From the NCBI GenBank assembly GCA_008273105.1, contig GCA_008273105.1_4080.1: a stretch of DNA of 64,000 nucleotides; one strand, 5' to 3'. This stretch comes from a phage. Both the position numbers and the translations under genes were made by a program. Below, in pieces: positions 15,265 to 49,175 of the stretch; positions within the stretch are counted from its first letter, which is position 1; each line of letters begins with the position of its first letter. The notes beneath the pieces were generated by a model that saw only the letters and a list, made by a program, of their open reading frames with translations, had not been told where the DNA came from and made no database searches.

Positions 15265-16377
15265 TTAGAACATTTGTTTGATTGCTTCATAACGAAGTTC
15301 ACAAACAAAATCACGAATTTCTGACGTTTCAAGTTCACCATCTTTGACCATTTGCTGAATATCAGGCAATTCAACATCAGTATAACGATCATAAACTTTA
15401 ATAATTAGATCTTCAAGTTCTAAATCAATTTCTTTTCGCAAAATGAAGTATTCCAAAACTTTATAAAGGAATTCTTCACCTCCGTTATTTTTAATATTCA
15501 TATCCAATAAAATATTACCCATTTCAATAGGGGTCTTTTTACGGAATGTTTTGATATCATCACGGAAACGTTTGATATAATTACTAAATTTAACATACTT
15601 AACTGGAACTTTAATAGCACCGTTAAGTACTGAATCATTATTTACTTCTTCATTTTCAAGAAGAATAGACCACAGAAAATATGGTTTATATACATCCGTA
15701 CAGTTCTCTGCAATATAATCAATAAGGTCTAAATTCTTTTTGGTCAAAGATGTATTAAACACCTTTTCGTAATAACCAAATTTACTTAGCGTCTTAAGGA
15801 ACTTTGCAGGCTTTTCTTCGGAAAATGCTTTTTCGAATTCCACAAAAACACGGTCAGGAACAAGATGATTTAGCTCACCACTATTGACCATTCCAATAGC
15901 TAGTTCCTCAGTGCTTTCATGGATAGTAAAGTCTGAATAACGAGTAGCAAATCGAGCAAGACGTAACACACGTAATGGATCTTCTTTAAAATGGTCAGAA
16001 ACATGACGTAGTACCTTGTTCTTGATATCAGCTTTACCACCGTATGGATCAATGTGAATTTGTAGTACTGGATCATACGAAATTGCATTTATTGTTAGGT
16101 CACGGCGATACAAATCTTGTTCGAGTGTTACGCCTTTTGTATCCACTTCAAAGCCACCATATCCAGTACCAGTTTTACGCTCAGTACGGGCTAATGCGTG
16201 TTCATTACCTTCTGGACTTAGATATACAGGGAAATCCTTACCTACTTGCTTATAGCCAATACTTTGCAAGTACTTAATATCAGATTCAGTTGCTCCGACA
16301 ATGACATAATCTTTGTCTTTTGCACGAAGACCCATTAAACGGTCACGGACGTAGCCACCAACCAAATACTTTTTCAT
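15265..16377 (-). CDS. cca: tRNA nucleotidyltransferase (CCA-adding enzyme), head/neck domain only
   Basis: MKKYLVGGYVRDRLMGL...DKDYVIVG...ALARTERK...RRDLTINA...EDPLRVLRLARF closely matches class II CCA enzymes; shorter than E. coli Cca. Confidence 0.85.
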   Translation of the reverse strand: MKKYLVGGYVRDRLMGLRAKDKDYVIVGATESDIKYLQSIGYKQVGKDFPVYLSPEGNEHALARTERKTGTGYGGFEVDTKGVTLEQDLYRRDLTINAISYDPVLQIHIDPYGGKADIKNKVLRHVSDHFKEDPLRVLRLARFATRYSDFTIHESTEELAIGMVNSGELNHLVPDRVFVEFEKAFSEEKPAKFLKTLSKFGYYEKVFNTSLTKKNLDLIDYIAENCTDVYKPYFLWSILLENEEVNNDSVLNGAIKVPVKYVKFSNYIKRFRDDIKTFRKKTPIEMGNILLDMNIKNNGGEEFLYKVLEYFILRKEIDLELEDLIIKVYDRYTDVELPDIQQMVKDGELETSEIRDFVCELRYEAIKQMF

Positions 16378-16512
16378 ATTATTCCCCCATCAACCAATCA
16401 CGCAAACGTTCCCATAAGCCTTTGGGCTTATATTCTGGGTATTCATATTCATCAGTGCCTTGCTCGGAAACACCCCAATCTTCTTCTAACATAGCAATCA
16501 TAATGCCTCCAA

Positions 16513-27165: not shown

Positions 27166-27777
27166 TCAATCATGTTTATTCAATTTCTTCTGTTCTTTTT
27201 TCAAAGCTTTCATATGACGACCAAACTCTCGAACATGCCATAGATGATCGGTTTCCCATAATTCTTGACGTAACCTACGTTCTTCTAGTAGTTTCGACTT
27301 GTCAATGTTATTTTTCTTTTTTTGTACATTAAAGAAATTATTCATATGTTCTTGGAGAAGATTACGACCTTTAACTTTCTCAAGAAACTCATCAACTGTT
27401 TCAGTTTTATTCGAACGTAGTTGATTACATCTGGAGCACATAGTATTAAAGTTTGACTCTAAATCAGGTCCACCCTTAGATGCCAGATGATTATGGTCAA
27501 CTGTCATTAAAACTTCATAAAGACCACATACAGCATATACATTTAAATGTGGTTTACCATATACTGGATCAGAACATAATGAACGTTCAATGCGTACTTC
27601 AGTAGCTTCAATCCCACATGCCACGCATTTTGGATTCTTAACAAAAGTAAGAACTTTTTGTGGGAAATATCGAAAAGTAATACCATTTAAAGTGTAGCGT
27701 TTCATCTTAGTACTTCGTTGATTTAATTCGTCAAGAAGTGATAATTTTGTCGTATAGTAAACATGATATTTGTTCAT
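27166..27777 (-). CDS. HNH endonuclease
   Basis: CVACG...DHNHLASKGG...N...CSRCNQLRSN HNH/Zn-finger motif; start at MNKYHVYY with AAGGAA RBS. Confidence 0.7.
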   Translation of the reverse strand: MNKYHVYYTTKLSLLDELNQRSTKMKRYTLNGITFRYFPQKVLTFVKNPKCVACGIEATEVRIERSLCSDPVYGKPHLNVYAVCGLYEVLMTVDHNHLASKGGPDLESNFNTMCSRCNQLRSNKTETVDEFLEKVKGRNLLQEHMNNFFNVQKKKNNIDKSKLLEERRLRQELWETDHLWHVREFGRHMKALKKEQKKLNKHD

Positions 27778-27778
27778 T

Positions 27779-28087
27779 TTATTCCTTGATATTGATTTTA
27801 ATATCTTTACCTTGTAAATCACGAATAGTTTTAATCAATGCGTCGTGTTTTAAAGCACATTCATTGTAGACTGCATCCCAACGAGTAAGTACTTTAAGAA
27901 TTTCTGCACCATCATAACCTTTAAAACCATTTTTGTCAATCATAATTTTTTGTGGTAGAGGTGTATCATCATCACATCTTTCTAACAGAATTTCTTGTTT
28001 AATTGGTGCGGGGGATTGTAGTTTTACTTGCTCGGCACACCCACTTATAATTAAAAAAGAAATCATTGGAACTAATAATTTTTTCAT
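27779..28087 (-). CDS. o-spanin-like outer-membrane lipoprotein
   Basis: MKKLLVPMISFLIISGC signal peptide with lipobox; immediately follows i-spanin-like gene. Confidence 0.6.
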   Translation of the reverse strand: MKKLLVPMISFLIISGCAEQVKLQSPAPIKQEILLERCDDDTPLPQKIMIDKNGFKGYDGAEILKVLTRWDAVYNECALKHDALIKTIRDLQGKDIKINIKE

Positions 28088-29004: not shown

Positions 29005-31794
29005 TTATAAATCACGGAAACGATTTGGTGTGTTTAAGCGGTACATTGAGTATAATCCCAATCCACGCATAATCTCACCTGCCCAGAAACCAAAAAACAT
29101 ACCATTATCAGTACCTTCTCTAACTGCTGGACTCCATGAACCATTCATTGGTGAACCTGGATTTACAATAACATAATTCTTTTGAAGTTCGAGAACTAAG
29201 TTATCAGCGAGTGTTGTTAGACCTTCTATTTTACATCCAGCCAATCCAGCAGCACAAGCCCCAGCTAACCACAACCCACACATATGACCTGTAAAGTCCC
29301 AATCTGGACCTTCAACTGTGCCATCTTTATTGAAGATTGTTGGTGAACGACCATCATTATCTTTTTGAAATTGAATTAAAAAGTGAATCCAATTCTCACA
29401 AAATTCAACAAGATCTGCTGGTGGTTCAATTCCTCTCTCTGCGAGTTCTTGCCATGCTCTGGCAGCCCCAAAGAACGCACGTGGTTCATACCCACTCCAT
29501 GCTTGATCACCCCAATGTAGCATAGTAAATGTATCTGGTTCACCATATTTTAAGTTATCCCAGCGGTTCCAAACATATGCTTGTGCACACGGACCAACAG
29601 TACCGAATTGTTGAGTAAACCATGTTTGGGAATCTTTCATAAAGCTTAACATGTTTCCTAAGCGTGTGTTATCTACTGGCTGGTCTTTAAAACAATATAT
29701 CACAGGATATTGATAACCTGGATACGGTAAACCACGCCATCCTGAATACTGGTTCGCATACGGGTCAGTGATGTTAGAAAATGGTATTGTTCCTGGTGTG
29801 TAATGCAATGAGTTTAACAAATAATCTTTGATTACACAATCCCCTAACTGTGCAGTATATGGTGATTCACCTGCAATTGTTATTGAAAATGTCATAGTAT
29901 AGTCATCACCGTCAGCATCCGTGTATAATTCTGGAATGTCATTAATACAATACCAATCAATTATTGCAGCAACACCATCTACTGGGGTTGTATCAGGTAA
30001 AATAGTAATATCTTCTAGTTCACTATAAACTGGTGCATCTGGTCTTGGGTCAGAACTTGGATGATTTGGCTGATACCCAGATAAACGTAATGTATCGGGA
30101 CTTAGTGTGATTGTAGTCCATTCCCCGTGTGTTGCAGGAATCATCCACCACCATCTCCAACCATTATCATCTACAATTCTTATATTGTAATCATCTTCAT
30201 ATGAACGATAGGTAAAAGATTTAACTTCAGACTTATTTGTTGCTAATAGCCAAAATCCAATAACAGCACCATCATCTTCACCACAAACTAACTGATTAAT
30301 GGTATCGCGGCGTGTAACTAATATATCAGTACTATATATCATTTCGGACGTAGCTGCACCATAAGGAACAACAATTCTACTATCAGCAATTATATAAGGG
30401 GAACCATCTGCTTTCTTTTCTCTAACAAATGCACTTAAAGGTGTTAATGAATGTGTGATATTTTGGTCTTTACTTTCCGGTAAGCCACAACGATAACGAA
30501 CAACATCATGGTCATTTTTTGTTTTTGACAATTCCAGTACTGGTTTAAATGATAACGGCTTACCATCATCACATACACCACCATAGTCTACAAGTAATTT
30601 AGAATCAGCATTGACCCTGAACCAAATAGCTTGTTGTTCCATTGTACTTTGTGCACTTTGGTCTTGCCTGATAGTAATATATCCTAGAGAATTTCTACCA
30701 AACTTAGCAATAGCATCACTTGGATAAAAATATTCATAGGAAATACCATCAGTGAATGGTGTGGTTACAATTGTACTTTGTCTGAAAAATTTATCTCTGG
30801 AGTCAATATCACCATAAGCATAACACGTTAGTAGTGAACATTTCCAACCCAAATAATGTTTTCTTTCTTTTGTTATTTTATATAACAAATAAGAAGCATC
30901 ACTAAACCACAATTCTGCATCTGATGCGTTATCCGCAAATTCCAAATCAATTGGAACATGAAGTGGGCGGTTGTGTTGCATTTCATTTCGTTGAATTATC
31001 ACACCACCATATTCTACTGGTTGACGATTTGCAAAATTTAATTTATATACACCATTAATTGTTGTATTCTTTAATTGAACAGTTCCTTTTTCAGATTCGT
31101 CAAAACCTTCTGCTAAAATATTACCATCCCAGTCGATTTTTCTACCCATGAAATCGATAATCCAGTCAACATCATATTGTTCACCTGGTGTATCCCAATC
31201 AACACTACCATCTGGTAATAATGCTTTTACTGACGCATTTATTTGGTTCCATGCTAAAGCACCTTTGAATGCAAATGTTACTTTATCCAAGAACTGACCA
31301 TAATAAGGTGCACCATGTGGTATTTTACATTGTCCATTTGTAAATGTAAATTCTACACCCTTGAAACCACCATGTGTAGGCCATCCATCATCAGCTAAAG
31401 GCCAGTTAGCCAATATAGGTTCTTTGGCATTAACTATCCAGTTACATTGTAGTGGTGTAGGTGGATCTGGTAATTCACGTCCAGCATAAAAGTACTGATG
31501 ATATGCGTCCCAGTACCACTTTGCCTTATCTAAAAACATTGGATCATTTGTTGCCAGATACGCATAAATGTATCCTAAAATTAATAGACTTTGACCTTCT
31601 GTTGTCCCGTCACCGTTTGGTTGACCTTCCATTGCAGAATAGTTAATAAAATGACGGTTGTTCGCCAAAACACCCTGATTATTCACCACATAATGTTGTA
31701 CTGTTGGGTCTATTGTATCACCAGTATTTCTTTCAATAAATTTGTGATGCCCATAAAGAAGTTGTACAATATTATCAATATTATTGTTTAACAT
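29005..31794 (-). CDS. large hypothetical protein (929 aa), possibly virion-associated with glycoside-hydrolase-like region
   Basis: Long Trp/Tyr/Gly-rich ORF; call is weak, from composition only. Confidence 0.55.
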   Translation of the reverse strand: MLNNNIDNIVQLLYGHHKFIERNTGDTIDPTVQHYVVNNQGVLANNRHFINYSAMEGQPNGDGTTEGQSLLILGYIYAYLATNDPMFLDKAKWYWDAYHQYFYAGRELPDPPTPLQCNWIVNAKEPILANWPLADDGWPTHGGFKGVEFTFTNGQCKIPHGAPYYGQFLDKVTFAFKGALAWNQINASVKALLPDGSVDWDTPGEQYDVDWIIDFMGRKIDWDGNILAEGFDESEKGTVQLKNTTINGVYKLNFANRQPVEYGGVIIQRNEMQHNRPLHVPIDLEFADNASDAELWFSDASYLLYKITKERKHYLGWKCSLLTCYAYGDIDSRDKFFRQSTIVTTPFTDGISYEYFYPSDAIAKFGRNSLGYITIRQDQSAQSTMEQQAIWFRVNADSKLLVDYGGVCDDGKPLSFKPVLELSKTKNDHDVVRYRCGLPESKDQNITHSLTPLSAFVREKKADGSPYIIADSRIVVPYGAATSEMIYSTDILVTRRDTINQLVCGEDDGAVIGFWLLATNKSEVKSFTYRSYEDDYNIRIVDDNGWRWWWMIPATHGEWTTITLSPDTLRLSGYQPNHPSSDPRPDAPVYSELEDITILPDTTPVDGVAAIIDWYCINDIPELYTDADGDDYTMTFSITIAGESPYTAQLGDCVIKDYLLNSLHYTPGTIPFSNITDPYANQYSGWRGLPYPGYQYPVIYCFKDQPVDNTRLGNMLSFMKDSQTWFTQQFGTVGPCAQAYVWNRWDNLKYGEPDTFTMLHWGDQAWSGYEPRAFFGAARAWQELAERGIEPPADLVEFCENWIHFLIQFQKDNDGRSPTIFNKDGTVEGPDWDFTGHMCGLWLAGACAAGLAGCKIEGLTTLADNLVLELQKNYVIVNPGSPMNGSWSPAVREGTDNGMFFGFWAGEIMRGLGLYSMYRLNTPNRFRDL

Positions 31795-31795
31795 A

Positions 31796-32332
31796 TCATA
31801 CTCCTGCTCTAATTAATGCACCGTACCATGTAACTCCTTTATCATATGTTTCTAATGAAATAATATCTTTTTCACCAATTTCATAAGAAAGAACAACTGG
31901 TCTGTTATATGACCATTTAACATTAGAACCCCAATTAACTAGGTTTGAACCTGTTTGTTGTGTTAATAGGATGGTAATTGAATAAACTTCAGTAGGAGCC
32001 GCACCAATCGAAATAGTAGTATTTCTATCAGATAAATTAATATTAAAAACAGCATTGCCCGACAGTGGATTAATTAAAATATTATTAGAACTTAATACAT
32101 TATATAACTTATTACTTGCACTATCATATAATGTTACCCATTCTGTTTCATGATTCTCGTTAGTAGCTTTAGCTTTTATCTTAACATTATTTTCAGAATC
32201 AGTCATTCCAGTCCATCCAGATATAATAAAAGAACTGTTTTTATTAGTTCCGAATGATGCAATCACAGAATCACTAAGAGAACTATCTTCACCATCAATA
32301 GATCCGAGTACTGACAATGTTAAAACCATCAT
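31796..32332 (-). CDS. hypothetical protein
   Basis: 178-aa ORF; 38-nt overlap with upstream ORF in +1 frame. Confidence 0.5.
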   Translation of the reverse strand: MMVLTLSVLGSIDGEDSSLSDSVIASFGTNKNSSFIISGWTGMTDSENNVKIKAKATNENHETEWVTLYDSASNKLYNVLSSNNILINPLSGNAVFNINLSDRNTTISIGAAPTEVYSITILLTQQTGSNLVNWGSNVKWSYNRPVVLSYEIGEKDIISLETYDKGVTWYGALIRAGV

Positions 32333-32486
32333 TTTTAATGTCTACACCAGTTGCACCTGAAAAATTATTTTGAAATTTAATAACTCCGGTAGTGTGGATA
32401 TCTGTGAAAATTTGTTGTGCCATACTTAATCCTTGTGTTAATTTATATTGAGTATTTATTGAGTGTAATGGCATTTTTAGTACCAT
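32295..32486 (-). CDS. small hypothetical protein (possibly N-terminal part of 31796-32332 via frameshift)
   Basis: 63-aa ORF, weak RBS. Confidence 0.3.
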   Translation of the reverse strand: MVLKMPLHSINTQYKLTQGLSMAQQIFTDIHTTGVIKFQNNFSGATGVDIKNDGFNIVSTRIY

Positions 32487-32500
32487 TACACTTGTATATG

Positions 32501-34771
32501 TTACTTATACCATTGCATTTCTCTAATATCAATGATAATTTTTGATGCTAACTTGATGTTTGGTTTTTTAGGAAGTACTGATTTCTTATATAGAACATCA
32601 CGAATGTATTGTACTTTATCATCGAAATATTCTAAGACTTCTTCATACTTCCATTTACCATTACGAATATCCATCAACATTTGTGCATCTGGTCGTTTAA
32701 CTTGAATAATTCCACTTTGTAATGCTTCTTCTGCACTATTCAAAAGTCGGATTGTGTGCATAGCATGTTTACAGTTTCCATGTAATGCAGTTTTACCATT
32801 TCTACGAGTAACCAGTGTACCGTTCGGAACTGAAAAACAAACAGTTCTGTAGTTAGTTACTGGAATTTTTTCAAGATTTTGTTTCATGTTTATTTTTTCT
32901 GATTTAGGTTTCATATTGATATGAACTTGATACATTTCAATATAACCAAAATTAGTTTCGTTTGTGTATGGTCCCCATTTCGATGTTTCATAACCGCACA
33001 GTAATGCTAGTTTTTGAACATCATCAGCTAATAATGAATTAGCAGTATAATATACATATGTGTCATCATGATTGACCAAATTACGTTTTGTACCATCACC
33101 TTGCAACAAACCTTTTAGCAGAAAATCCATTTTTCGTTTTGTTAAATCAAATGCCCAATTTGGAATTCTTTTATTATATGATCCATGCCCACAATCATTA
33201 TATAATGCTTCAGCCACTTCACGTGGAAATACAAATCTTGATTCATCATTTGATTGGTAATCTTTTCTTTCGTTAATGTATTCCTGAAATATCATTTGTC
33301 CAGATTGTTTGTATTTTGATAAAGCACAACGCATACCAGGACTGGCTTTTGATTGTGAAATGTATAATGATTTTACTTTTCCATCTCTAAAACTTATACT
33401 ACCATCTGAAAGAAACCATCCCATCAGTTGAAGATAAACTTTGATATCCATATAGTCAATTGGGCTTTTTTTATCTTTATATTCCTTTGTTATTGGAGAT
33501 AATGTATTCAAAATTTTATAAGTTTCTTTTAATTGTGCTGCTTCAACAAATTGCCATTCTGACATATCTTTTTGCTGATTACGTGCATAATTCTTAACAT
33601 ACATTCTGTGATTTGCAGTCACTAACGTATCTTGGTGATGACCAGTGAAATGGTAAAGATTTCCATTGTATAAATTATCAAAACGTTCTGTGTATTTTTG
33701 ATACTCTATTTTGTGATTTTTATCAAAAGTCGCTAATAGATCTTTATCAGTGATGTCGTCAAATAATTTCCAACCATCTTTAGTTAAGAATTCAGTATCA
33801 AAACTATAACAGTCGTATCCGTGTTGTGATTCTAAAATAGCACGTTTGGCATTACGATTTTCTTTCCATTTATGATAACTTTTCCTATTCTCACTATTTT
33901 CCTGATATTCTTTTTCGTTAAATTTGACAATTAGTTCTGGTTTAGTTTTCAACTCTTCAGTACTACGCTCTTTAGAAAAATAACGCAATGATCCATCACC
34001 GTTGATAGTGCTTTCATTCGGATTTTTAATAATCGCAAAAATGTTTTCTCCGTAATGAATTAGTTCATAACCATTATTAAAATTCAATAAATTGAAATCA
34101 CGATCAAGAATTTTTTCAGTAGTGTAGTTATGCACTAATCTTACAAAATGATATTGCTTTAATGGATTTTTCGAAACTAACTGCAATGACGTATCACGCA
34201 TATATTTTTCAAAATCAATCTTTTTAGCATTAAATGGATGTAAGTTGGATGTATCTAAACGTTCAACAAGATACTGTGGGAATGAATCATACATCCACGC
34301 AAGAACCTCATCGACAGGGTGTTCTTCTAAAATCTCATTTAATCGTTTTTCAGCAATACGCTCTTTATCCATCCAACCGTGATGATTTGTCATACGCTTA
34401 ATCTGATTATATGCATATCCAGTGTATGAAAATGCAATCTTGGAACTAAGAAGTTTTTGGTTAAATGAACGAAGATAGTCATAAATCTCAGTACTTTCTA
34501 CAATGTGTTCTGGATCGACCCATAGTGATTCCAATATATTAGGGTTGGCTTCAGTGTATAATTTTAAATACTGATTTAACTCATAGAATTTAGTATCTTC
34601 TTCATTTTTATCAGCTACTTCTTTGACCTTATAGAATGGCGTAAGAATAAATTCTTTATTAGCAAGAAAAATACCACGATAATCAGTATCACTTTCAGGT
34701 GTACTGGTTCCGTAGGCTTGTGACCCAGCCAAGTGTTTCACTATTGTTTGTTCAACATATTGGTTATTCAT
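32501..34771 (-). CDS. Pol-beta-superfamily nucleotidyltransferase interrupted by an intein
   Basis: N-terminal HLAGSQAYGTSTPESDTDYRGIF (GS...SDxD NTase motif); in-frame ~346-aa intein; C-extein CKHAMHTIRLL... Confidence 0.7.
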   Translation of the reverse strand: MNNQYVEQTIVKHLAGSQAYGTSTPESDTDYRGIFLANKEFILTPFYKVKEVADKNEEDTKFYELNQYLKLYTEANPNILESLWVDPEHIVESTEIYDYLRSFNQKLLSSKIAFSYTGYAYNQIKRMTNHHGWMDKERIAEKRLNEILEEHPVDEVLAWMYDSFPQYLVERLDTSNLHPFNAKKIDFEKYMRDTSLQLVSKNPLKQYHFVRLVHNYTTEKILDRDFNLLNFNNGYELIHYGENIFAIIKNPNESTINGDGSLRYFSKERSTEELKTKPELIVKFNEKEYQENSENRKSYHKWKENRNAKRAILESQHGYDCYSFDTEFLTKDGWKLFDDITDKDLLATFDKNHKIEYQKYTERFDNLYNGNLYHFTGHHQDTLVTANHRMYVKNYARNQQKDMSEWQFVEAAQLKETYKILNTLSPITKEYKDKKSPIDYMDIKVYLQLMGWFLSDGSISFRDGKVKSLYISQSKASPGMRCALSKYKQSGQMIFQEYINERKDYQSNDESRFVFPREVAEALYNDCGHGSYNKRIPNWAFDLTKRKMDFLLKGLLQGDGTKRNLVNHDDTYVYYTANSLLADDVQKLALLCGYETSKWGPYTNETNFGYIEMYQVHINMKPKSEKINMKQNLEKIPVTNYRTVCFSVPNGTLVTRRNGKTALHGNCKHAMHTIRLLNSAEEALQSGIIQVKRPDAQMLMDIRNGKWKYEEVLEYFDDKVQYIRDVLYKKSVLPKKPNIKLASKIIIDIREMQWYK
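32774..33811 (-). mobile_element. intein with LAGLIDADG homing endonuclease domain
   Basis: Block A CYSFDTEFLTKDGWK; LAGLIDADG-like LMGWFLSDGSISF and LLKGLLQGDGT; C-terminal ...ALHGN then Cys+1; boundaries approximate. Confidence 0.75.
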
Positions 34772-35169
34772 AGATAAATTGTTAACTCCTTTAAGAAACC
34801 GTTATAATAACGATTAAAGTCATGTTCTAATGTTTTATAATCATCAAAACTAAAACCTAAATTGATAATTGTATCTTCTTGAAAGAAAGTTTCTTCATTC
34901 ATACATTCAATTGGTTCGTAATTAATTCCACCTTTAAAAACTTTTGTAAAAAATATTCCATCATTATTAATTTCAACATACATAAAATTATTTTCTGGGT
35001 CACGAGGGCAGACGATATTCAGTGAACTATTTCCACTCGTGTTGTACTCATAAGAAATTATATCAAAAGAATCAATACCATAACACTTAGATTTTTCTTT
35101 ATCACCAAATACTTTTCTATCTGTACTCATATTGCGTATAGTGCTGTAGATATCATCAACTGTAGTCAT
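34768..35169 (-). CDS. hypothetical protein
   Basis: 133-aa ORF. Confidence 0.5.
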   Translation of the reverse strand: MTTVDDIYSTIRNMSTDRKVFGDKEKSKCYGIDSFDIISYEYNTSGNSSLNIVCPRDPENNFMYVEINNDGIFFTKVFKGGINYEPIECMNEETFFQEDTIINLGFSFDDYKTLEHDFNRYYNGFLKELTIYL

Positions 35170-35171
35170 CG

Positions 35172-35681
35172 TTAACCACCATACTTTGACTTGTATGTTT
35201 CAAGTGATAAAGAAATACGATTTTGCTTTTTAATTCTTTCATCAATATCCTTTGAATTCTTCACACTTCGGTATACGTCAGCTAGTAAATTATAATCTTC
35301 TTTATTTGAGCTATGCTGTGCCCAACCTATCTCTGTTTTAATACGAACATTTGCTTTATTTGACGAGTAAAAGAAACTGAATCCATTGGACCCATCAAAA
35401 ATATCAAAAGTATCTACCCAATCACCATAAGGAAAGCTCATTGGAACTGACTCATGGTCTATTGTGATATCCGATAAATTTTTTGAACAGTACTTCGCAA
35501 AGTGATAAACGATTGGATCACATTTTGATAATTCGTATTTGTATTCAATGATAGTTTTTCTATTAGCATCATTGATAGCATATTCTTTTATCAATGGACT
35601 TTTTTTGATGATAAGAGTCCATAGAAACGATTCTAATCCTGTTTCATCAACTTTTTGTTTCTTTTTGAAAAATGAAATCAT
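35172..35681 (-). CDS. hypothetical protein, tandem paralog family member 3
   Basis: Shares KSxxLK...TDxDR(K/R)...KYxLSK and W...FxG motifs with the two upstream genes. Confidence 0.55.
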   Translation of the reverse strand: MISFFKKKQKVDETGLESFLWTLIIKKSPLIKEYAINDANRKTIIEYKYELSKCDPIVYHFAKYCSKNLSDITIDHESVPMSFPYGDWVDTFDIFDGSNGFSFFYSSNKANVRIKTEIGWAQHSSNKEDYNLLADVYRSVKNSKDIDERIKKQNRISLSLETYKSKYGG

Positions 35682-36199
35682 TTATATAAACCCTTAATTT
35701 TCTGTCTATTATGTATATCATTTTGCTGGATTTTCAATTTAGTAAGGTTGTTTCTTACACCTTCAACACCACGCATTATTTGTAACATAATTAGTGATTC
35801 GTCATATGTTAGGACATTGCTATTATTATCGATATATACTTTCACTCCACTTTCAAGATAATCATTTTCTTTGGAGTTAAAGTTTCTAATAACAAACTTA
35901 ACGCCATTTGATGCATCACTGAAAACATATCGTTCCGCACCGTAGAATGTTTTTCCACGAAATAAACCGCCGTCTTCCCACTTCCAACGACTAGATTCAT
36001 AATCATTAACGTAATCAATGATTAAAGAAAGTAAAGGGTGTTTGCTCAATTTATATTTTGCATCTAACAGGATACGTCTATCATTATCTGTGGTGATAAT
36101 ATCCTTTAGTGAGTAGCTTTTAGATATAATTTTAAAGATAATTTCATGCCAAATTAAAGTACTGTTTTGTTTTCCAACTGATCCAAAAAACATATCCAT
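35678..36199 (-). CDS. hypothetical protein, tandem paralog family member 2
   Basis: Paralog of 35172-35681 and 36206-36772. Confidence 0.55.
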   Translation of the reverse strand: MDMFFGSVGKQNSTLIWHEIIFKIISKSYSLKDIITTDNDRRILLDAKYKLSKHPLLSLIIDYVNDYESSRWKWEDGGLFRGKTFYGAERYVFSDASNGVKFVIRNFNSKENDYLESGVKVYIDNNSNVLTYDESLIMLQIMRGVEGVRNNLTKLKIQQNDIHNRQKIKGLYK

Positions 36200-36205
36200 T
36201 CCTCA

Positions 36206-36772
36206 TTAGTATAAATCAGTAATGTCTTTGTATGCATTAATCTGTTTTTGTTGTAATGAAAGTTCATTGAGTTTAGTTACCATCTTATCTACACCAACAC
36301 GTGTATAGAAAATAATTAATGAATCTAAATTGCCTAGAGTAATTCTTGAACTGTAAGTTGAAAGTTTTCTTGCATAAACATAAATTTCTTCTTCACTTGG
36401 TAAACGTTTCTCAATCTGCAAGATTTCCTCACCATTCGGCTCATAATCGATTTCAAATTCAACTCCCATCACTGTGTCTTGAATGCGATCTGTATATGAA
36501 CCACCGTAAAAATACTCTCTTGGTTTGGCTCTCCAACGAGGACTAAATGGGTCAGATGCGTATTCTTTTACAAATTTGTAAAAGGACATTTTACTGAGCA
36601 TATACTTCATCTCAATTAGTGCTTTGCGGTCATCATCAGTTTTAAACTCTGCTTTGAGCGATGGACTTTTACACAGTAACTTAACTAAATTGTTGTACAT
36701 CTTTAATGTACGTTGTTCTTTCATTTCTTTGATTTTGTGACGTTTTGGTGGCGGTAATAAAGATTTGACCAT
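36206..36772 (-). CDS. hypothetical protein, tandem paralog family member 1
   Basis: Paralog; AGGAGG RBS; first gene after fibre-gene terminator. Confidence 0.55.
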   Translation of the reverse strand: MVKSLLPPPKRHKIKEMKEQRTLKMYNNLVKLLCKSPSLKAEFKTDDDRKALIEMKYMLSKMSFYKFVKEYASDPFSPRWRAKPREYFYGGSYTDRIQDTVMGVEFEIDYEPNGEEILQIEKRLPSEEEIYVYARKLSTYSSRITLGNLDSLIIFYTRVGVDKMVTKLNELSLQQKQINAYKDITDLY

Positions 36773-36805
36773 AATTTCCTCCTATTTTTATTCAATTATA
36801 CACAT

Positions 36806-36835
36806 AAAAGAAAAGCCCGTCAATAGACGAGCTTT
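36806..36835 (-). terminator. rho-independent terminator after fibre gene
   Basis: Stem GCTCGTC/GACGGGC (one mismatch), 4-nt loop, TTTTCTTTT tail. Confidence 0.55.
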
Positions 36836-36839
36836 AAAT

Positions 36840-39569
36840 TTATTTCCAACGTGTACCTGGACCTGATGGTACACCAGTACTGGCAGGTATCGCTGAACCA
36901 CGTTTCGTTGTACTTGGACGATATGTCAAAAAACGAGTTACTTTTTCTGTATCAATTGAAGTTATTCCTGAAGTTCCAGTAACTATCTTACCAATGTAAG
37001 TGCTAGTTAAAGATTCATCAATTGTTTCAGTACTAATAACATATGACGCTTTCTTAGTATTCCTGTTCATTTGTATATACAAATAGAACGTAGTATTAGC
37101 TGGATTACTTTTTACAGTACTTAAATCAACACTTTGTATAGGTAGTCTGTCGAAAATTCCACCTAAAAACACCGGAACTTCACGTGTAAAGTACACTGAG
37201 AATCCTTGTGCAACGTCTTGTGATACTACCACAATCTTTTCTTTAACGCTACCATTTCCACTAATTAAACCATCCATTTCAGCAGATGTTGTACCAAAAA
37301 CGCTGAATACAGATTTGGTTTGATAGTCAGAATCTTGAAAATTGTAATATCCAAAACCAACACCAGGAATAACACCATGTTGATATGCTGCACCAAGTTG
37401 GATGTAACTAGATGATAAAAAACGATTTGATGTTATGACACCATCTACTGTTTTAGCTATCATCATCTTAAATTGTGCATTACCTGGTTGTGAAAATTGA
37501 TGAACGGCATCAACACCAATGTAACCAAATCCTGAATATTTTGCAACAGTTAGACCAGTACAACGTTTCATATATGCTTCAGTAATAATTCCTGTAACAG
37601 AACTCAGTGTTTCATATCTAGTACTCACCAATGTAGCTGAAGTTATGTTAGTTCCAGATAATACAACATCAACTTCGGCATAGATTGCATAACCTTGGTT
37701 ATTGTTAAGATTATATGCTGAAACTACTGCGATGGATTTAGAAAAAGTATTATCAGGTACATAATATAATACAATTTGTCCAGATAGTGTACCAACAATG
37801 CCAGAGTTTCCTATATTAGCAAAAATATCTTGTTTTAATGATTCTAATACCGTTGGTTCTATTGTATATGTTTCATCAAATTCTAAAGTATCTGGATTTA
37901 ATAATCCACCACTTGTTTTATATACACCTTCAATGAATGATGTTCCATAGCATCTAACACTACCATCGGTATCAACAAGAGAAATCATAGCAGTGTATGT
38001 AAAATCATCGCCTATTTGTTTACGATTAGATTGTGGTGCAAAACCATTTAATGTAGTATTATTTTGAACTGAGTTATATTGATATGTTGGTTGTGAACCT
38101 ATTTCAGAAAAAACAGTATTATTATAATTATATGTTACATCATCATACGTACCAGAACATGCTAATAATATTTTTCTATTATCGATGAAACGTACACCTA
38201 AAAGGTTTGCACCAACAGCACTACCAAAAACTGGTAAAACGTTTGCATTTATAACGTTACTTGCGGTTCTAGTACTGGCAACCCATGAATCAAACGGTGT
38301 ACCACTAACCTTATATCGTTGTAGACCATAAAATTCAGTTGAACTCCATCTAAATTTAGATGCAAATACCAAACCATCTTTAGTTTGACATAAACCACCT
38401 GCGTTTCCTAATACACCAGCAGCAGTTGTCCCTGTGAAGTTGACCATATTAATTTCAAATGGGTTAGAAACTTGAAATCCATTATTATATGAAACAGTTG
38501 CAGGTGCACGAGCACTACCATCTAGTGACATAGATTTTGAGTTTATATTATAAACAAAACTTATTCCAGTACCATAAACTGTTGAAATATACAAAGGTGT
38601 AACCATTCGATGTGTTGGATATAAAGTTACACGTATTTTTGATAAATCAGGACTAACGTTGGCTTGAATGTTAAAGTCTGTATAGTCTGAAAATTCTACA
38701 CGTGATACTGGTGATGTAACTTCGAATAATGAATCCGAGCTAGTACCAACACTATATAATTTATCGAACACTCTTATGTTATTAGATGCAGAATAACTTG
38801 TGTTTCGAACAGTTTGACCTGATAACCCAGTAACTTTTGTTAATGATGCCATTGAGCTTGCTTTCACATCACTTAGCTCTACTGTATAAATTGAAAGTGC
38901 TAATCCTAAATTAGAAACACTTTTATCTTTACACCAAATATAAACCTTTGTCCCAACAATATGTGTATATATTGGCATATCATTACCAAAAGAAGTACTT
39001 GGCACTTTAGCATGAATATGTGATATTTCGTTAAATGTGCCATTGGTTATAGTAAAAATATAATTATCTTCAGTACTTAAACATCCAAGCATCTCATAAC
39101 CATTAGAGCCAATAAAATACTTAATATTTTCAGTACTACTCATAATTGAAGGTTTATACATTGAATTGGTTGAAATAACACTTTCTTGTGAAATCATAGT
39201 TATATTTCGGAGATCTCGTATAAATGAATAATAAAAACCTTTAGTACTACCATTGGTTCCGCTACGCAGAACAACGGCGGTTCCATCATCTTCAATAATT
39301 GTTGGCTGAACTACTTGGTCACTTGACATAGGTGTAGCACCTTCATACGATCCACTTACGTTTAATGGTAAGTAATCCATTTCTCCTACACGTGATATAG
39401 GCAACATATCTAAAATACTTTGAACTTCTGAACGCTTATATATTGGATATTGAACAATTCCAGTATTGGCATTCGGTGAGGTTCCATTAAAAGTACGCAT
39501 AGCGTACCTTTGTCCAATTGCCAAGTTCCCAAGGATCTCGGCACTTCCTATAATTCGTTTTGATGACAT
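36840..39569 (-). CDS. putative tail fibre / receptor-binding protein (paralog A)
   Basis: ~910 aa from MSSKRIIG (AAGGAAAATAAAG RBS); N-terminal LRSGTNGS and C-terminal GTSGIT...TYRPS...GxPSxxGT modules shared with 40185-42881. Confidence 0.6.
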   Translation of the reverse strand: MSSKRIIGSAEILGNLAIGQRYAMRTFNGTSPNANTGIVQYPIYKRSEVQSILDMLPISRVGEMDYLPLNVSGSYEGATPMSSDQVVQPTIIEDDGTAVVLRSGTNGSTKGFYYSFIRDLRNITMISQESVISTNSMYKPSIMSSTENIKYFIGSNGYEMLGCLSTEDNYIFTITNGTFNEISHIHAKVPSTSFGNDMPIYTHIVGTKVYIWCKDKSVSNLGLALSIYTVELSDVKASSMASLTKVTGLSGQTVRNTSYSASNNIRVFDKLYSVGTSSDSLFEVTSPVSRVEFSDYTDFNIQANVSPDLSKIRVTLYPTHRMVTPLYISTVYGTGISFVYNINSKSMSLDGSARAPATVSYNNGFQVSNPFEINMVNFTGTTAAGVLGNAGGLCQTKDGLVFASKFRWSSTEFYGLQRYKVSGTPFDSWVASTRTASNVINANVLPVFGSAVGANLLGVRFIDNRKILLACSGTYDDVTYNYNNTVFSEIGSQPTYQYNSVQNNTTLNGFAPQSNRKQIGDDFTYTAMISLVDTDGSVRCYGTSFIEGVYKTSGGLLNPDTLEFDETYTIEPTVLESLKQDIFANIGNSGIVGTLSGQIVLYYVPDNTFSKSIAVVSAYNLNNNQGYAIYAEVDVVLSGTNITSATLVSTRYETLSSVTGIITEAYMKRCTGLTVAKYSGFGYIGVDAVHQFSQPGNAQFKMMIAKTVDGVITSNRFLSSSYIQLGAAYQHGVIPGVGFGYYNFQDSDYQTKSVFSVFGTTSAEMDGLISGNGSVKEKIVVVSQDVAQGFSVYFTREVPVFLGGIFDRLPIQSVDLSTVKSNPANTTFYLYIQMNRNTKKASYVISTETIDESLTSTYIGKIVTGTSGITSIDTEKVTRFLTYRPSTTKRGSAIPASTGVPSGPGTRWK

Positions 39570-48765: not shown

Positions 48766-48992
48766 TGTGCATCCTTCGGAACAGTATTAAGACGTTTGCG
48801 ATTCACAATCTTCCTGCACATGAGGTTAAGATCTTGCCCATGACGCATAGTATGACATGCGTATAGTGTTCCTTGATGATTTAGTTTTGTTAAACCTTGA
48901 CGGATGATTTCAGCATCCATCTCATCAACTTTAGGAGCACATCCACTCAGAAATACAATAGAAGAAATAATAAAAATATATAATAATTTCAT
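48762..48992 (-). CDS. small lipoprotein
   Basis: MKLLYIFIISSIVFLSGC signal peptide with lipobox. Confidence 0.5.
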   Translation of the reverse strand: MKLLYIFIISSIVFLSGCAPKVDEMDAEIIRQGLTKLNHQGTLYACHTMRHGQDLNLMCRKIVNRKRLNTVPKDAQ

Positions 48993-48995
48993 AAT

Positions 48996-49175
48996 TTAAT
49001 CACCTATACATAAGTACTCGATTGATGGTTTACCATTAACTAACACAATTCCAGTGTGAGTTAATACACAGTTGTCGGGAGCTTCTTCAAATACTGATAC
49101 GTAAATGTATGAACCATTACTAACTGAACAAGATAATACCATAAGAACTGCGATTAGTACAAGTAAAAATTTCAT
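48996..49175 (-). CDS. small putative lipoprotein (59 aa)
   Basis: MKFLLVLIAVLMVLSC signal peptide with lipobox-like VLSC; below track cutoff. Confidence 0.4.
   Translation of the reverse strand: MKFLLVLIAVLMVLSCSVSNGSYIYVSVFEEAPDNCVLTHTGIVLVNGKPSIEYLCIGD

Follow-up and report, generated by a model that had tools for sequence, protein, structure and literature searches.

A probable class 1-type intein with a nested LAGLIDADG endonuclease in the RlaP-family nucleotidyltransferase gene of an Escherichia coli jumbo phage

The question raised by this locus is why a phage nucleotidyltransferase gene carries 346 codons that are missing from its closest relatives, and whether the additional segment is an intein capable of splicing and homing. 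The gene (32501..34771, minus strand; 756 aa and a stop codon) lies in a 64,000-nucleotide stretch of DNA, hereafter the window, and was delineated with the ORF list and Pfam. The full-length protein matches both RlaP (PF10127, 56.5 bits) and LAGLIDADG_3 (24.6 bits). The carrier is an Asteriusvirus (121Q/PBECO4-like) jumbo phage of E. coli. A megablast search with positions 30000..38000 returned 19 Asteriusvirus records with 98–99.8% identity and 87% query coverage, and the uncovered 13% is a 1038-bp insert. The nearest phages, ELP-22, E9.1, UB and JP4, have 99.8% identical flanks and lack the insert, the borders of which fall precisely at codon boundaries. The insert occupies 32774..33811 (minus strand; residues 321–666), which reproduces exactly the in-frame insertion of about 346 aa proposed in the original prediction. 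Once it is removed in silico, the remaining protein matches the 410-aa nucleotidyltransferase of ELP-22 with 100% identity, and three nucleotides in 1233 differ. Sixteen contigs from independent sequencing runs carry the exact 756-aa protein, and six loci that were examined do not differ by a single nucleotide in this gene; hence, the insert is not an assembly artefact. The contigs also show that the allele is in circulation. The six independent intein-bearing loci are also identical over 4–6 kb around the intein.

The host protein is a member of the RlaP family, in agreement with its initial description as a Pol-beta-type nucleotidyltransferase. The spliced protein scores 60.3 bits against PF10127 (Pfam gathering cut-off of 23), and the match to phrog_388 runs from end to end (residues 3–409). 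The N-extein (aa 1–320; 33812..34771, minus strand) contains the catalytic core with the Pol-beta motif GSQAYG...SDTD (G16, S17 and D30 are invariant in homologues) and ends with ...HGYD. The −1 codon GAC (33812..33814, minus strand) encodes Asp320, invariant in 39 intein-free homologues. The C-extein (aa 667–756 and the stop codon; 32501..32773, minus strand) begins with Cys+1 (codon TGT, 32771..32773, minus strand) and continues with the conserved KHAMHTIRLL helix; K322, H326 and R329 of the host protein are likewise invariant. The comparison with intein-free homologues placed the insertion site between Asp320 and Lys322, and Cys+1 and KHAMHTIRL come directly after residue 666, so that the host protein is indeed split just before its KHAMH...RL segment. 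In the model of the intein-free protein, this site is the start of helix 321–340. A PDB sequence search with the spliced extein gave no match, and a fold search gave weak matches only, to kanamycin nucleotidyltransferase and other Pol-beta nucleotidyltransferases. Pseudomonas RlaP has been reported to add one or two NMP at RNA 3′-OH ends (PMC12776372), and by analogy the phage enzyme may function in RNA repair.

The inserted segment could in principle be an ordinary nucleotidyltransferase domain or a free-standing endonuclease gene fused to the host gene, with no intein involved. The sole support for this is that Pfam Hint and intein-splicing models gave no match to the single intein sequence at E ≤ 1. 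Such a reading has almost no probability, as the 790 homologues of the host protein found at E ≤ 1e-10 are overwhelmingly 350–450 aa long and lack the segment, it is missing at exact codon boundaries from relatives whose flanks are 99.8% identical, and the predicted structure is that of an intein. In the AF2 model of the segment (pLDDT 95.4, pTM 0.93), the endonuclease region shows a helix-strand pattern and Hint strands lie on both sides of it. The top Foldseek matches are all whole-chain matches to endonuclease-containing inteins (TliVMA, PI-SceI, PhoVMA and PI-PkoII, E down to 2e-15), followed by I-DmoI, hedgehog Hint (1.7e-4) and mini-inteins; I-SceI and I-AniI were matched as well. The four top-matching inteins share the two-domain architecture (E 1e-15 to 1e-10, TM 0.54–0.62 over the whole chain), but are only about 10–12% identical to the phage intein, end with a penultimate His and reside in other exteins; PI-PkoII has an Asp at F:4 and PI-SceI has an additional DNA-recognition region.

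Profile searches point in the same direction. The intein alone exceeds the threshold of Pfam LAGLIDADG_3 (PF14528; 27.3 bits, cut-off 22.5) and matches intein-bearing NCBIfam and PHROG families. A profile of the clade of related inteins matched the solved inteins PI-PkoII (2.9e-20; 65.8 bits for the endonuclease region), TliVMA/PhoVMA (about 1e-11) and AceL NrdHF (1e-10), while the single sequence found only AceL NrdHF in the PDB, weakly and over AceL residues 12–79. The proposed check by Hint and LAGLIDADG profiles was thus positive for LAGLIDADG_3 and for solved inteins, but negative for the Pfam Hint models; because of the latter, the Hint assignment depends on the profile of the clade, the predicted structure and homology to inteins already described. 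A C-terminal profile of blocks F and G weakly matched the KlbA intein in the PDB and did not return AceL (crystal form C124A), so the spacing comparison with AceL relies on the residue numbers of the published paper.

All the intein features lie on the minus strand. The intein starts with CYSFDTEF... (precursor residue 321) in splicing block A, CYSFDTEFLTKDG (33773..33811), the Cys1 nucleophile being present in 37/37 clade members covering that position. Block B, DTLVTANHRMYV (33596..33631), includes the TANH sequence and contributes Thr65 (T/S in 37/39 of the clade alignment), His68 (39/39) and Met70 at B:12 (31/39). The LAGLIDADG homing-endonuclease domain, recognised by Pfam, profile, model and Foldseek, covers intein residues ~111–300 (32912..33481). 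Its first motif, LMGWFLSDGS (33398..33427), carries the acidic Asp136, in a column that is D/E in 40/40 clade sequences; the second, LLKGLLQGDGT (33089..33121), carries Asp239, with Asp in 39/40. Block F, RTVCFSVPNGTLVTRR (32801..32848), has Cys325 at F:4, where standard inteins have Asp. In alignments, the column of this cysteine holds the block F Asp in PI-PkoII (a stretch below threshold) and in the Mja KlbA intein; three clade members show a VYDLTVP-type Asp in the same column, and F:4 Cys is kept throughout the nucleotidyltransferase subgroup. Block G, NGKTALHGN (32774..32800), contains the penultimate Gly345 and the terminal Asn346; the ...LHGN end is precursor residue 666. The Asn is kept in 40/40 clade sequences, and the +1 residue is C, S or T across the clade. 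The predicted hallmarks (Cys1 in block A, two LAGLIDADG motifs, a terminal Asn and Cys+1) are all present, and the catalytic residues, with C/S/T at +1, are conserved in the clade.

Two usual but not obligatory class 1 features are absent: the penultimate His, replaced by Gly345, and the F:4 Asp, replaced by Cys325. Both are usual aids to Asn cyclisation and step coordination, and their lack could mean that the intein is degenerate and does not splice, leaving the nucleotidyltransferase effectively inactivated. We consider this very unlikely. The penultimate Gly, which had been called atypical, is so for inteins generally, but it is the norm in this clade (39/40 sequences, across many exteins) and hence no sign of decay; the F:4 Cys, too, is a conserved state of the subgroup. 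The penultimate His is dispensable for splicing (Chen et al. 2000, cited in PMC5050341). The RDF intein, assayed by Kelley et al. along with terminase inteins, has the same layout and splices fully with a penultimate Gly, and restoration of His (G316H) slows splicing (PMC5050341). The AceL NrdHF intein has neither of the two His residues (block F and penultimate) and splices within minutes (PMC7891396). Finally, in the comparison with Escherichia virus TH47, dN/dS is 0.04–0.05 for the Hint parts and 0.05 for the exteins, which implies that both are under selection. For an intein that does splice, translation would give a 756-aa precursor in which an N-terminal thioester arises at Cys1, the N-extein is transferred to Cys+1 and cyclisation of Asn346 releases the 346-aa intein; a normal Asp320–Cys peptide bond would then seal the 410-aa nucleotidyltransferase.

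The presence of a class 3-like F:4 Cys beside a class 1 Cys1 is an oddity of this intein. When tested for class 3 (WCT) membership, it does not show the missing nucleophile, since Cys1 is present and conserved, and the trio Trp B:12/Cys F:4/Thr G:5 is represented by Met70/Cys325/His344, of which Cys alone fits. Among solved Hint domains, that of the split intein AceL NrdHF (PDB 6zgq) is nearest in sequence; AceL NrdHF is an atypical class 3 intein (“MCT”) from a putative phage contig and tolerates Met at B:12 (PMC7891396). The two share His68 and Met70 at identical positions and the F:4 Cys, and both lack the block F His and the penultimate His. They differ in that AceL NrdHF lacks an N-terminal nucleophile (Ala1) and carries Thr at G:5 (Cys1 and His in the E. 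coli phage intein), uses the F:4 Cys as the obligate first nucleophile, and is naturally split, with a GIY-YIG endonuclease gene rather than a LAGLIDADG domain. The clade of phage inteins found in nucleotidyltransferases, RDF-phosphoesterases, ThyX and other proteins has in common Cys1, B:12 Met, F:4 Cys and the Gly-Asn end, along with the lack of the block F and penultimate His. It is conceivable, but rather improbable, that this clade is a mechanistic and evolutionary bridge between classes 1 and 3, and that Cys325 either stands in for, or adds to, the usual branch-point nucleophile (cf. AceL Cys124) or pairs with Cys1 or Cys+1 in a redox switch. The redox variant, if true, would mean that maturation of an RNA-repair enzyme is gated during infection.

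The intein has described relatives. Tblastn aligned 100% of its length with the NT intein of mycobacteriophage gp3 at 33.6% identity (E 1e-47), and the junctions of Alice gp3, HGWD/C...MHGN/TK..H..RL (slashes mark the junctions), are at the homologous site. The NT allele is documented in nucleotidyltransferases of cluster C1 mycobacteriophages (PMC5050341), including Bixzunavirus Alice, Cali, ET08 and others (Kelley et al. 2016, PMC5050341; Gosselin et al. 2025, 10.1101/2025.01.02.630785). It shares with the E. coli phage intein the host family (PF10127/IPR018775), the site HG[YW]D/[CT]K..H..RL, Cys1, TxNH, the F:4 Cys, the ...HGN end and the LAGLIDADG endonuclease, with about one third of residues identical. 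The differences are the +1 residue (Thr in cluster C1, Cys here), a region of ~130 aa that the E. coli phage extein has in addition, and the carrier, which is an actinobacteriophage in one case and a Gram-negative jumbo phage (Asteriusvirus, ~30% GC) in the other. By sequence homology, the intein studied here is the known NT allele in a new host rather than a new type of element. Homologous inteins at the matching site were also found in Pectobacterium phage DU_PP_I, Prevotella phage Lak-B9 and ~20 metagenomic proteins. A distant clade member is the RDF (metallophosphoesterase) intein of cluster A1 mycobacteriophages (Bethlehem gp51, Switzer gp53), which is alike in Cys1, the TANH block B, the F:4 Cys, the penultimate Gly and the terminal Asn (...TGN), and unlike in its extein and site, about 22% identity and a +1 Ser. 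At the DNA level, a similar intein occurs in only one other phage record among 50,697; none was found among 5,426 complete E. coli genomes, and a tblastn search of the window revealed no second copy.

Phage TH47 (MT446416.1, an unannotated “UNVERIFIED” record) carries the intein at the same site in the same genus. The inteins are 89.6% identical in amino acids and 88.4% in nucleotides (88% vs. 79% and 72% for the two exteins), while the exteins as a whole are only 77% identical in nucleotides. Intein dS is 0.56 and extein dS is above 2. Each carrier has a near-identical intein-free relative: ELP-22 for the phage studied here (99.8%, PBECO4/ELP-22 lineage) and vB_Ec-M-J (EcMJ) for TH47 (97.9%). 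Since their exteins fall in different lineages, the two phages are not simple vertical relatives. The intein dN/dS of 0.09 implies purifying selection, and the far greater similarity of the inteins than of the exteins indicates horizontal spread, as judged from the sequence comparison. A TH47-like donor was considered and rejected, since it would have left far more differences in the flanks. Compositional foreignness was also rejected, with a GC content of 30.5% for the intein against 32.2% and 30.8% for the exteins. As for a co-conversion tract, the three nucleotides that differ from ELP-22 all lie within 140 bp of the junction, and two of them match the TH47/EcMJ states; this is suggestive of a tract, although three differences are too few to establish one.

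These data also bear on whether the endonuclease is active. An intein that splices but has an inactive endonuclease could be a vertically inherited passenger, kept because its imprecise loss would destroy the nucleotidyltransferase. Consistent with this, dN/dS of the endonuclease part (0.13) is somewhat above that of the Hint parts, and decay does occur in the clade, where the second motif has degenerated in P0006 (QGNGT) and P0014 carries a deletion. We nevertheless regard a vertical passenger as unlikely, as both LAGLIDADG acidic residues are intact in the E. coli phage, a dN/dS of 0.13 still corresponds to strong purifying selection, and intein divergence far below that of the exteins, together with near-identical intein-free relatives, argues for transfer after the host lineages had split. 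The locus very likely represents a genuine full-size class 1-type intein, composed of a Hint domain with a nested LAGLIDADG endonuclease, in an RlaP gene, and it is probably active. Splicing, DNA cleavage and the target site are what we infer from these features. Once freed, the endonuclease would cleave the intein-free allele (...CACGGATACGAT/TGTAAACATGCT...) carried by a related co-infecting phage, and repair off the intein-bearing copy would spread the element by homing. The corresponding empty site of ELP-22 is centred on CACGGATACGAT/TGTAAACATGCTATG; RaK2 and P0048 have variants of it with Arg and Leu at +1, respectively, and PBECO4 and 121Q are further intein-free members of Asteriusvirus.

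By the standards of intein biology the element is ordinary, and its value is modest. It adds E. coli jumbo phages to the carriers of an allele documented in actinobacteriophages, and when the copies from Pectobacterium, Prevotella Lak and metagenomes are included, one intein/target-site pair is found to circulate among phages of very different bacterial phyla. With the phage as the filled site and its intein-free relatives (99.8% identical) as the empty one, culturable coliphages naturally provide a matched pair, which is convenient for measuring homing and co-conversion in phage crosses. As the host is an RlaP-family nucleotidyltransferase with a putative RNA-repair role, it is possible in principle that splicing sets the timing of an anti-defence function or gates it. 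The gene is properly annotated as a nucleotidyltransferase that contains an intein; the label “HNH endonuclease”, given to several of its mycobacteriophage homologues, is wrong.

The 1038-bp segment at 32774..33811 (minus strand) encodes residues 321 (CYSFDTEF...) to 666 (...LHGN) of a 756-aa nucleotidyltransferase (NTase) precursor, listed as ORF 32501..34771 on the minus strand. Cys+1 and KHAMHTIRL follow directly after ...LHGN. The original prediction of an insert within this ORF is borne out with identical coordinates, and its description of the sequence (Cys1 start, LHGN end, Cys+1 and KHAMHTIRL) was right in all details. Megablast matched the region 30000..38000 to 121Q/PBECO4-like E. 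coli jumbo phages of the genus Asteriusvirus; 19 records span 87% of it at 98–99.8% identity, and the remaining 13% is the 1038-bp segment. Phage ELP-22 is collinear with the entire 64-kb window at about 98% identity, with two interruptions: the 1038-bp insertion and, near 49 kb, a difference in an unrelated cassette. The ELP-22 counterpart gene is annotated as a 410-aa “nucleotidyltransferase”, and the window protein without residues 321–666 is 100% identical to it. Hence, this comparison with an intein-free homologue, proposed earlier as a check, fixes the borders to the codon level; the sole ambiguity is that intein and C-extein alike open with TGT.

The spliced gene differs from that of ELP-22 at 3 of 1233 nucleotides, all within about 140 bp of the site: the third base of the −1 Asp codon (33812..33814), gene position 828 and C-extein position 138. 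The −1 codon is GAC in the window, in the intein-bearing Escherichia virus TH47 (MT446416.1) and in the intein-free phage vB_Ec-M-J, versus GAT in ELP-22. These differences may be a remnant of co-conversion, three sites being too few to tell. Independent public sequencing runs yielded 16 contigs that encode the exact 756-aa protein, and the 2271-nt gene is identical across the six loci examined, while their flanks vary by 2–28 mismatches per 3 kb. The intein-bearing allele is therefore real and circulating.

In Pfam searches, the insert scores above the gathering threshold for LAGLIDADG_3 (27.3 vs. 22.5) and the exteins match RlaP (PF10127; 60.3 vs. a cut-off of 23). Phrog_388 “nucleotidyltransferase” spans residues 3–409 of the spliced protein, and the insert matches the intein-bearing parts of PHROG and NCBIfam models for thymidylate synthase, PhoH, the PolII large subunit, DnaB and GyrA. 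An alignment of 40 relatives (hereafter the clade) was used as a profile against solved structures and as AlphaFold2 input. The profile search retrieved PI-PkoII (2.9e-20), the Thermococcus and Pyrococcus VMA inteins (about 1e-11), the AceL NrdHF intein (1e-10), the KlbA intein and PI-SceI. The AlphaFold2 model is very confident (pLDDT 95.4, pTM 0.93) and features two alpha/beta repeats between beta-rich N- and C-terminal parts. The best whole-chain Foldseek matches in the PDB were TliVMA, PI-SceI, PhoVMA and PI-PkoII; matches to I-DmoI and I-SceI covered the middle, and those to hedgehog Hint domains and mini-inteins the ends. These results support the interpretation of the insert as an intein with a LAGLIDADG endonuclease, whose splicing, cleavage and target site are predicted.

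Its catalytic residues are present and conserved in the clade: Cys1 (37/37), the acidic residues of the two LAGLIDADG motifs, Asp136 (D/E in 40/40) and Asp239 (39/40), and the C-terminal Asn346 (40/40), followed by Cys+1, where the clade has C, S or T. Block B contributes Thr65 and His68 (His in 39/39). The penultimate Gly, previously regarded as atypical, is indeed there; however, 39 of the 40 clade sequences have it before their terminal Asn irrespective of extein, so that it is a family trait and no lesion. The RDF intein of cluster A1 mycobacteriophages, a 317-aa clade member, has the same layout (C1, TANH, ...VWCLRVPNG... and ...HLTGN, then S). It splices to completion, and restoring the His (G316H) makes the precursor build up (Kelley et al., PMC5050341). 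The AceL NrdHF intein, whose Hint domain is the nearest in sequence among those solved, likewise lacks the block F and penultimate His residues and splices within minutes (PMC7891396).

Cys325, at block F position 4 (F:4), aligns with the usual block F Asp of KlbA (IYDLTV) and, in a sub-threshold stretch, of PI-PkoII (VYDLSV). In class 3 inteins, the F:4 Cys is the first nucleophile. The window intein falls outside this class, given its strictly conserved Cys1 and the Met and His that occupy B:12 and G:5. The AceL “MCT” class 3 intein closely parallels its combination of Cys1, Met (B:12), Cys (F:4) and no assisting His, except at position 1. Three clade members have Asp in the Cys325 column (VYDLTVP or VYDVTVP), which argues for splicing via Cys1; a genuinely hybrid or redox-gated mechanism is conceivable but improbable.

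RlaP is the commonest NTase of its kind in jumbo phages (PMC7824862). Pseudomonas PF10127 enzymes extend RNA 3′-OH ends by one or two NMPs and are proposed partners of RNA ligases in the repair of damaged tRNA (PMC12776372). No RNA ligase is annotated in this stretch, judging by the ELP-22 annotation. A tRNA nucleotidyltransferase (CCA-adding enzyme) gene, placed at about 15266..16378 by collinearity with ELP22_0312 (ELP-22 annotation), shares the window with the RlaP gene, so that by annotation and family the phage appears to encode at least two RNA 3′-end repair NTases.

As predicted, the intein lies just ahead of a conserved KHAMH...RL segment. In 39 intein-free homologues, the site falls between Asp320 and Lys322, both invariant, as are His326 and Arg329, which lie one and two turns of the helix beyond it; AlphaFold modelling of the protein without the intein (pLDDT 91.8) places residue 321 at the start of a long helix (321–340). 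Given this position, the unspliced precursor would very likely be inactive. Most of these homologues have Thr (28) or Cys (7) at +1, the others Leu (2), Arg (1) or Gly (1), and thus a splicing intein can be accommodated by most alleles but not by a few. Non-nucleophilic +1 residues occur in the Klebsiella phage RaK2 NTase (L007; Arg, HGYD then RKFAMH) and the database proteins P0048 and P0123 (Leu). Such alleles may resist productive invasion, as an intein could not splice there.

Tblastn of the insert against 50,697 phage genomes gave full-length matches (33.6% identity, E 1e-47) in about 90 mycobacteriophages of cluster C1, lying within their gp3 “nucleotidyltransferase”. The insertion point in Alice gp3 is the same (HGWD, C...MHGN, TKTGYHALRL vs. 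HGYD, C...LHGN, CKHAMHTIRL in the window). This “NT” intein was catalogued with 23 cluster C1 examples (Kelley et al. 2016, PMC5050341), and a 2025 preprint (10.1101/2025.01.02.630785) re-surveyed NT inteins, describing near-identical copies that sit in divergent exteins at single localities. In many C1 records, gene 3 is labelled “HNH endonuclease” (e.g., MK359359.1 Colt, MK359314.1 Ewok), a wrong label for an NTase that harbours a LAGLIDADG-type endonuclease.

The same intein occupies this site in Pectobacterium phage DU_PP_I (Certrevirus), Prevotella megaphage Lak-B9 and about 20 proteins from metagenomes, some of them in Promethearchaeota, Nanoarchaeota or “Glassbacteria” bins. For three of these NTases (P0008, P0012 and P0025; attributed to Promethearchaeota, on a 557-kb contig, and to Nanoarchaeota and “Candidatus Glassbacteria” MAGs), either viral contigs were binned into MAGs or the allele extends to archaea and CPR bacteria. 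The Rak2-like jumbo-phage NTase P0139 (686 aa), from an ENA metagenome contig, carries at this site an intein of the DU_PP_I type, not of the window/TH47 type; therefore, more than one lineage of the family has invaded jumbo-phage RlaP genes. Remoter clade members reside in ThyX, terminase, RDF phosphoesterase, primase/helicase, NAMPT and RNR. Prevotella phage Lak-A1 (L020, 1501..2613) has a related intein (25.9% identity, ...VWCGN then S) in a different extein ending in a Cys-rich segment. We found no paper mentioning an intein in Asteriusvirus nucleotidyltransferases, and the sole other database copy is in the TH47 record, which has no annotation. The element is thus a known intein allele, and what is new is its host record, E. 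coli Asteriusvirus jumbo phages.

The window and TH47 genes were compared codon by codon and by sliding-window identity. Nucleotide identity is 78.6% in the N-extein (dS 2.1, saturated; dN/dS 0.048), 88.4% in the intein (dS 0.56; dN/dS 0.09) and 71.5% in the C-extein (dS saturated, neither dS nor dN/dS computable), rising and then dropping at the two junctions. Within the intein, dN/dS is 0.04–0.05 for the Hint parts and 0.13 for the endonuclease part. These values and identity steps indicate purifying selection on splicing and endonuclease parts alike, and an intein ancestor much more recent than that of the host genes. The TH47 extein is 97.9% identical to that of intein-free vB_Ec-M-J, and the window extein 99.8% to that of ELP-22. 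Filled sites paired with near-identical empty ones would be expected of homing or of repeated precise loss, homing being the simpler reading. Neither phage is the direct donor of the other's intein, as the two inteins are 11.6% diverged. Base composition gives no sign of a recent arrival from a distant genome (intein GC-content 30.5% vs. 31–32%).

The interest of the element is moderate to low, and lies mainly in the spread of one intein/target pair across phyla, in near-isogenic filled and empty sites at hand in culturable coliphages, and in active-site residues mixing class 1 and class 3-like features.

A free-standing HNH endonuclease gene (27166..27822, minus; Pfam HNH 25.7 bits vs. a cut-off of 21.4), about 5 kb from the intein and also present in ELP-22 (ELP22_0281), is a candidate second selfish element. 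The only other break in collinearity with ELP-22, at 48953..49168 (ORF 48996..49175, minus), replaces about 1.6 kb of ELP-22 (ELP22_0249–0251, one of which encodes a 323-aa protein with a WGR domain at its C-terminus) with about 216 bp; the protein encoded by the latter is 59 aa long, and its N-terminus is hydrophobic and lipoprotein-like.
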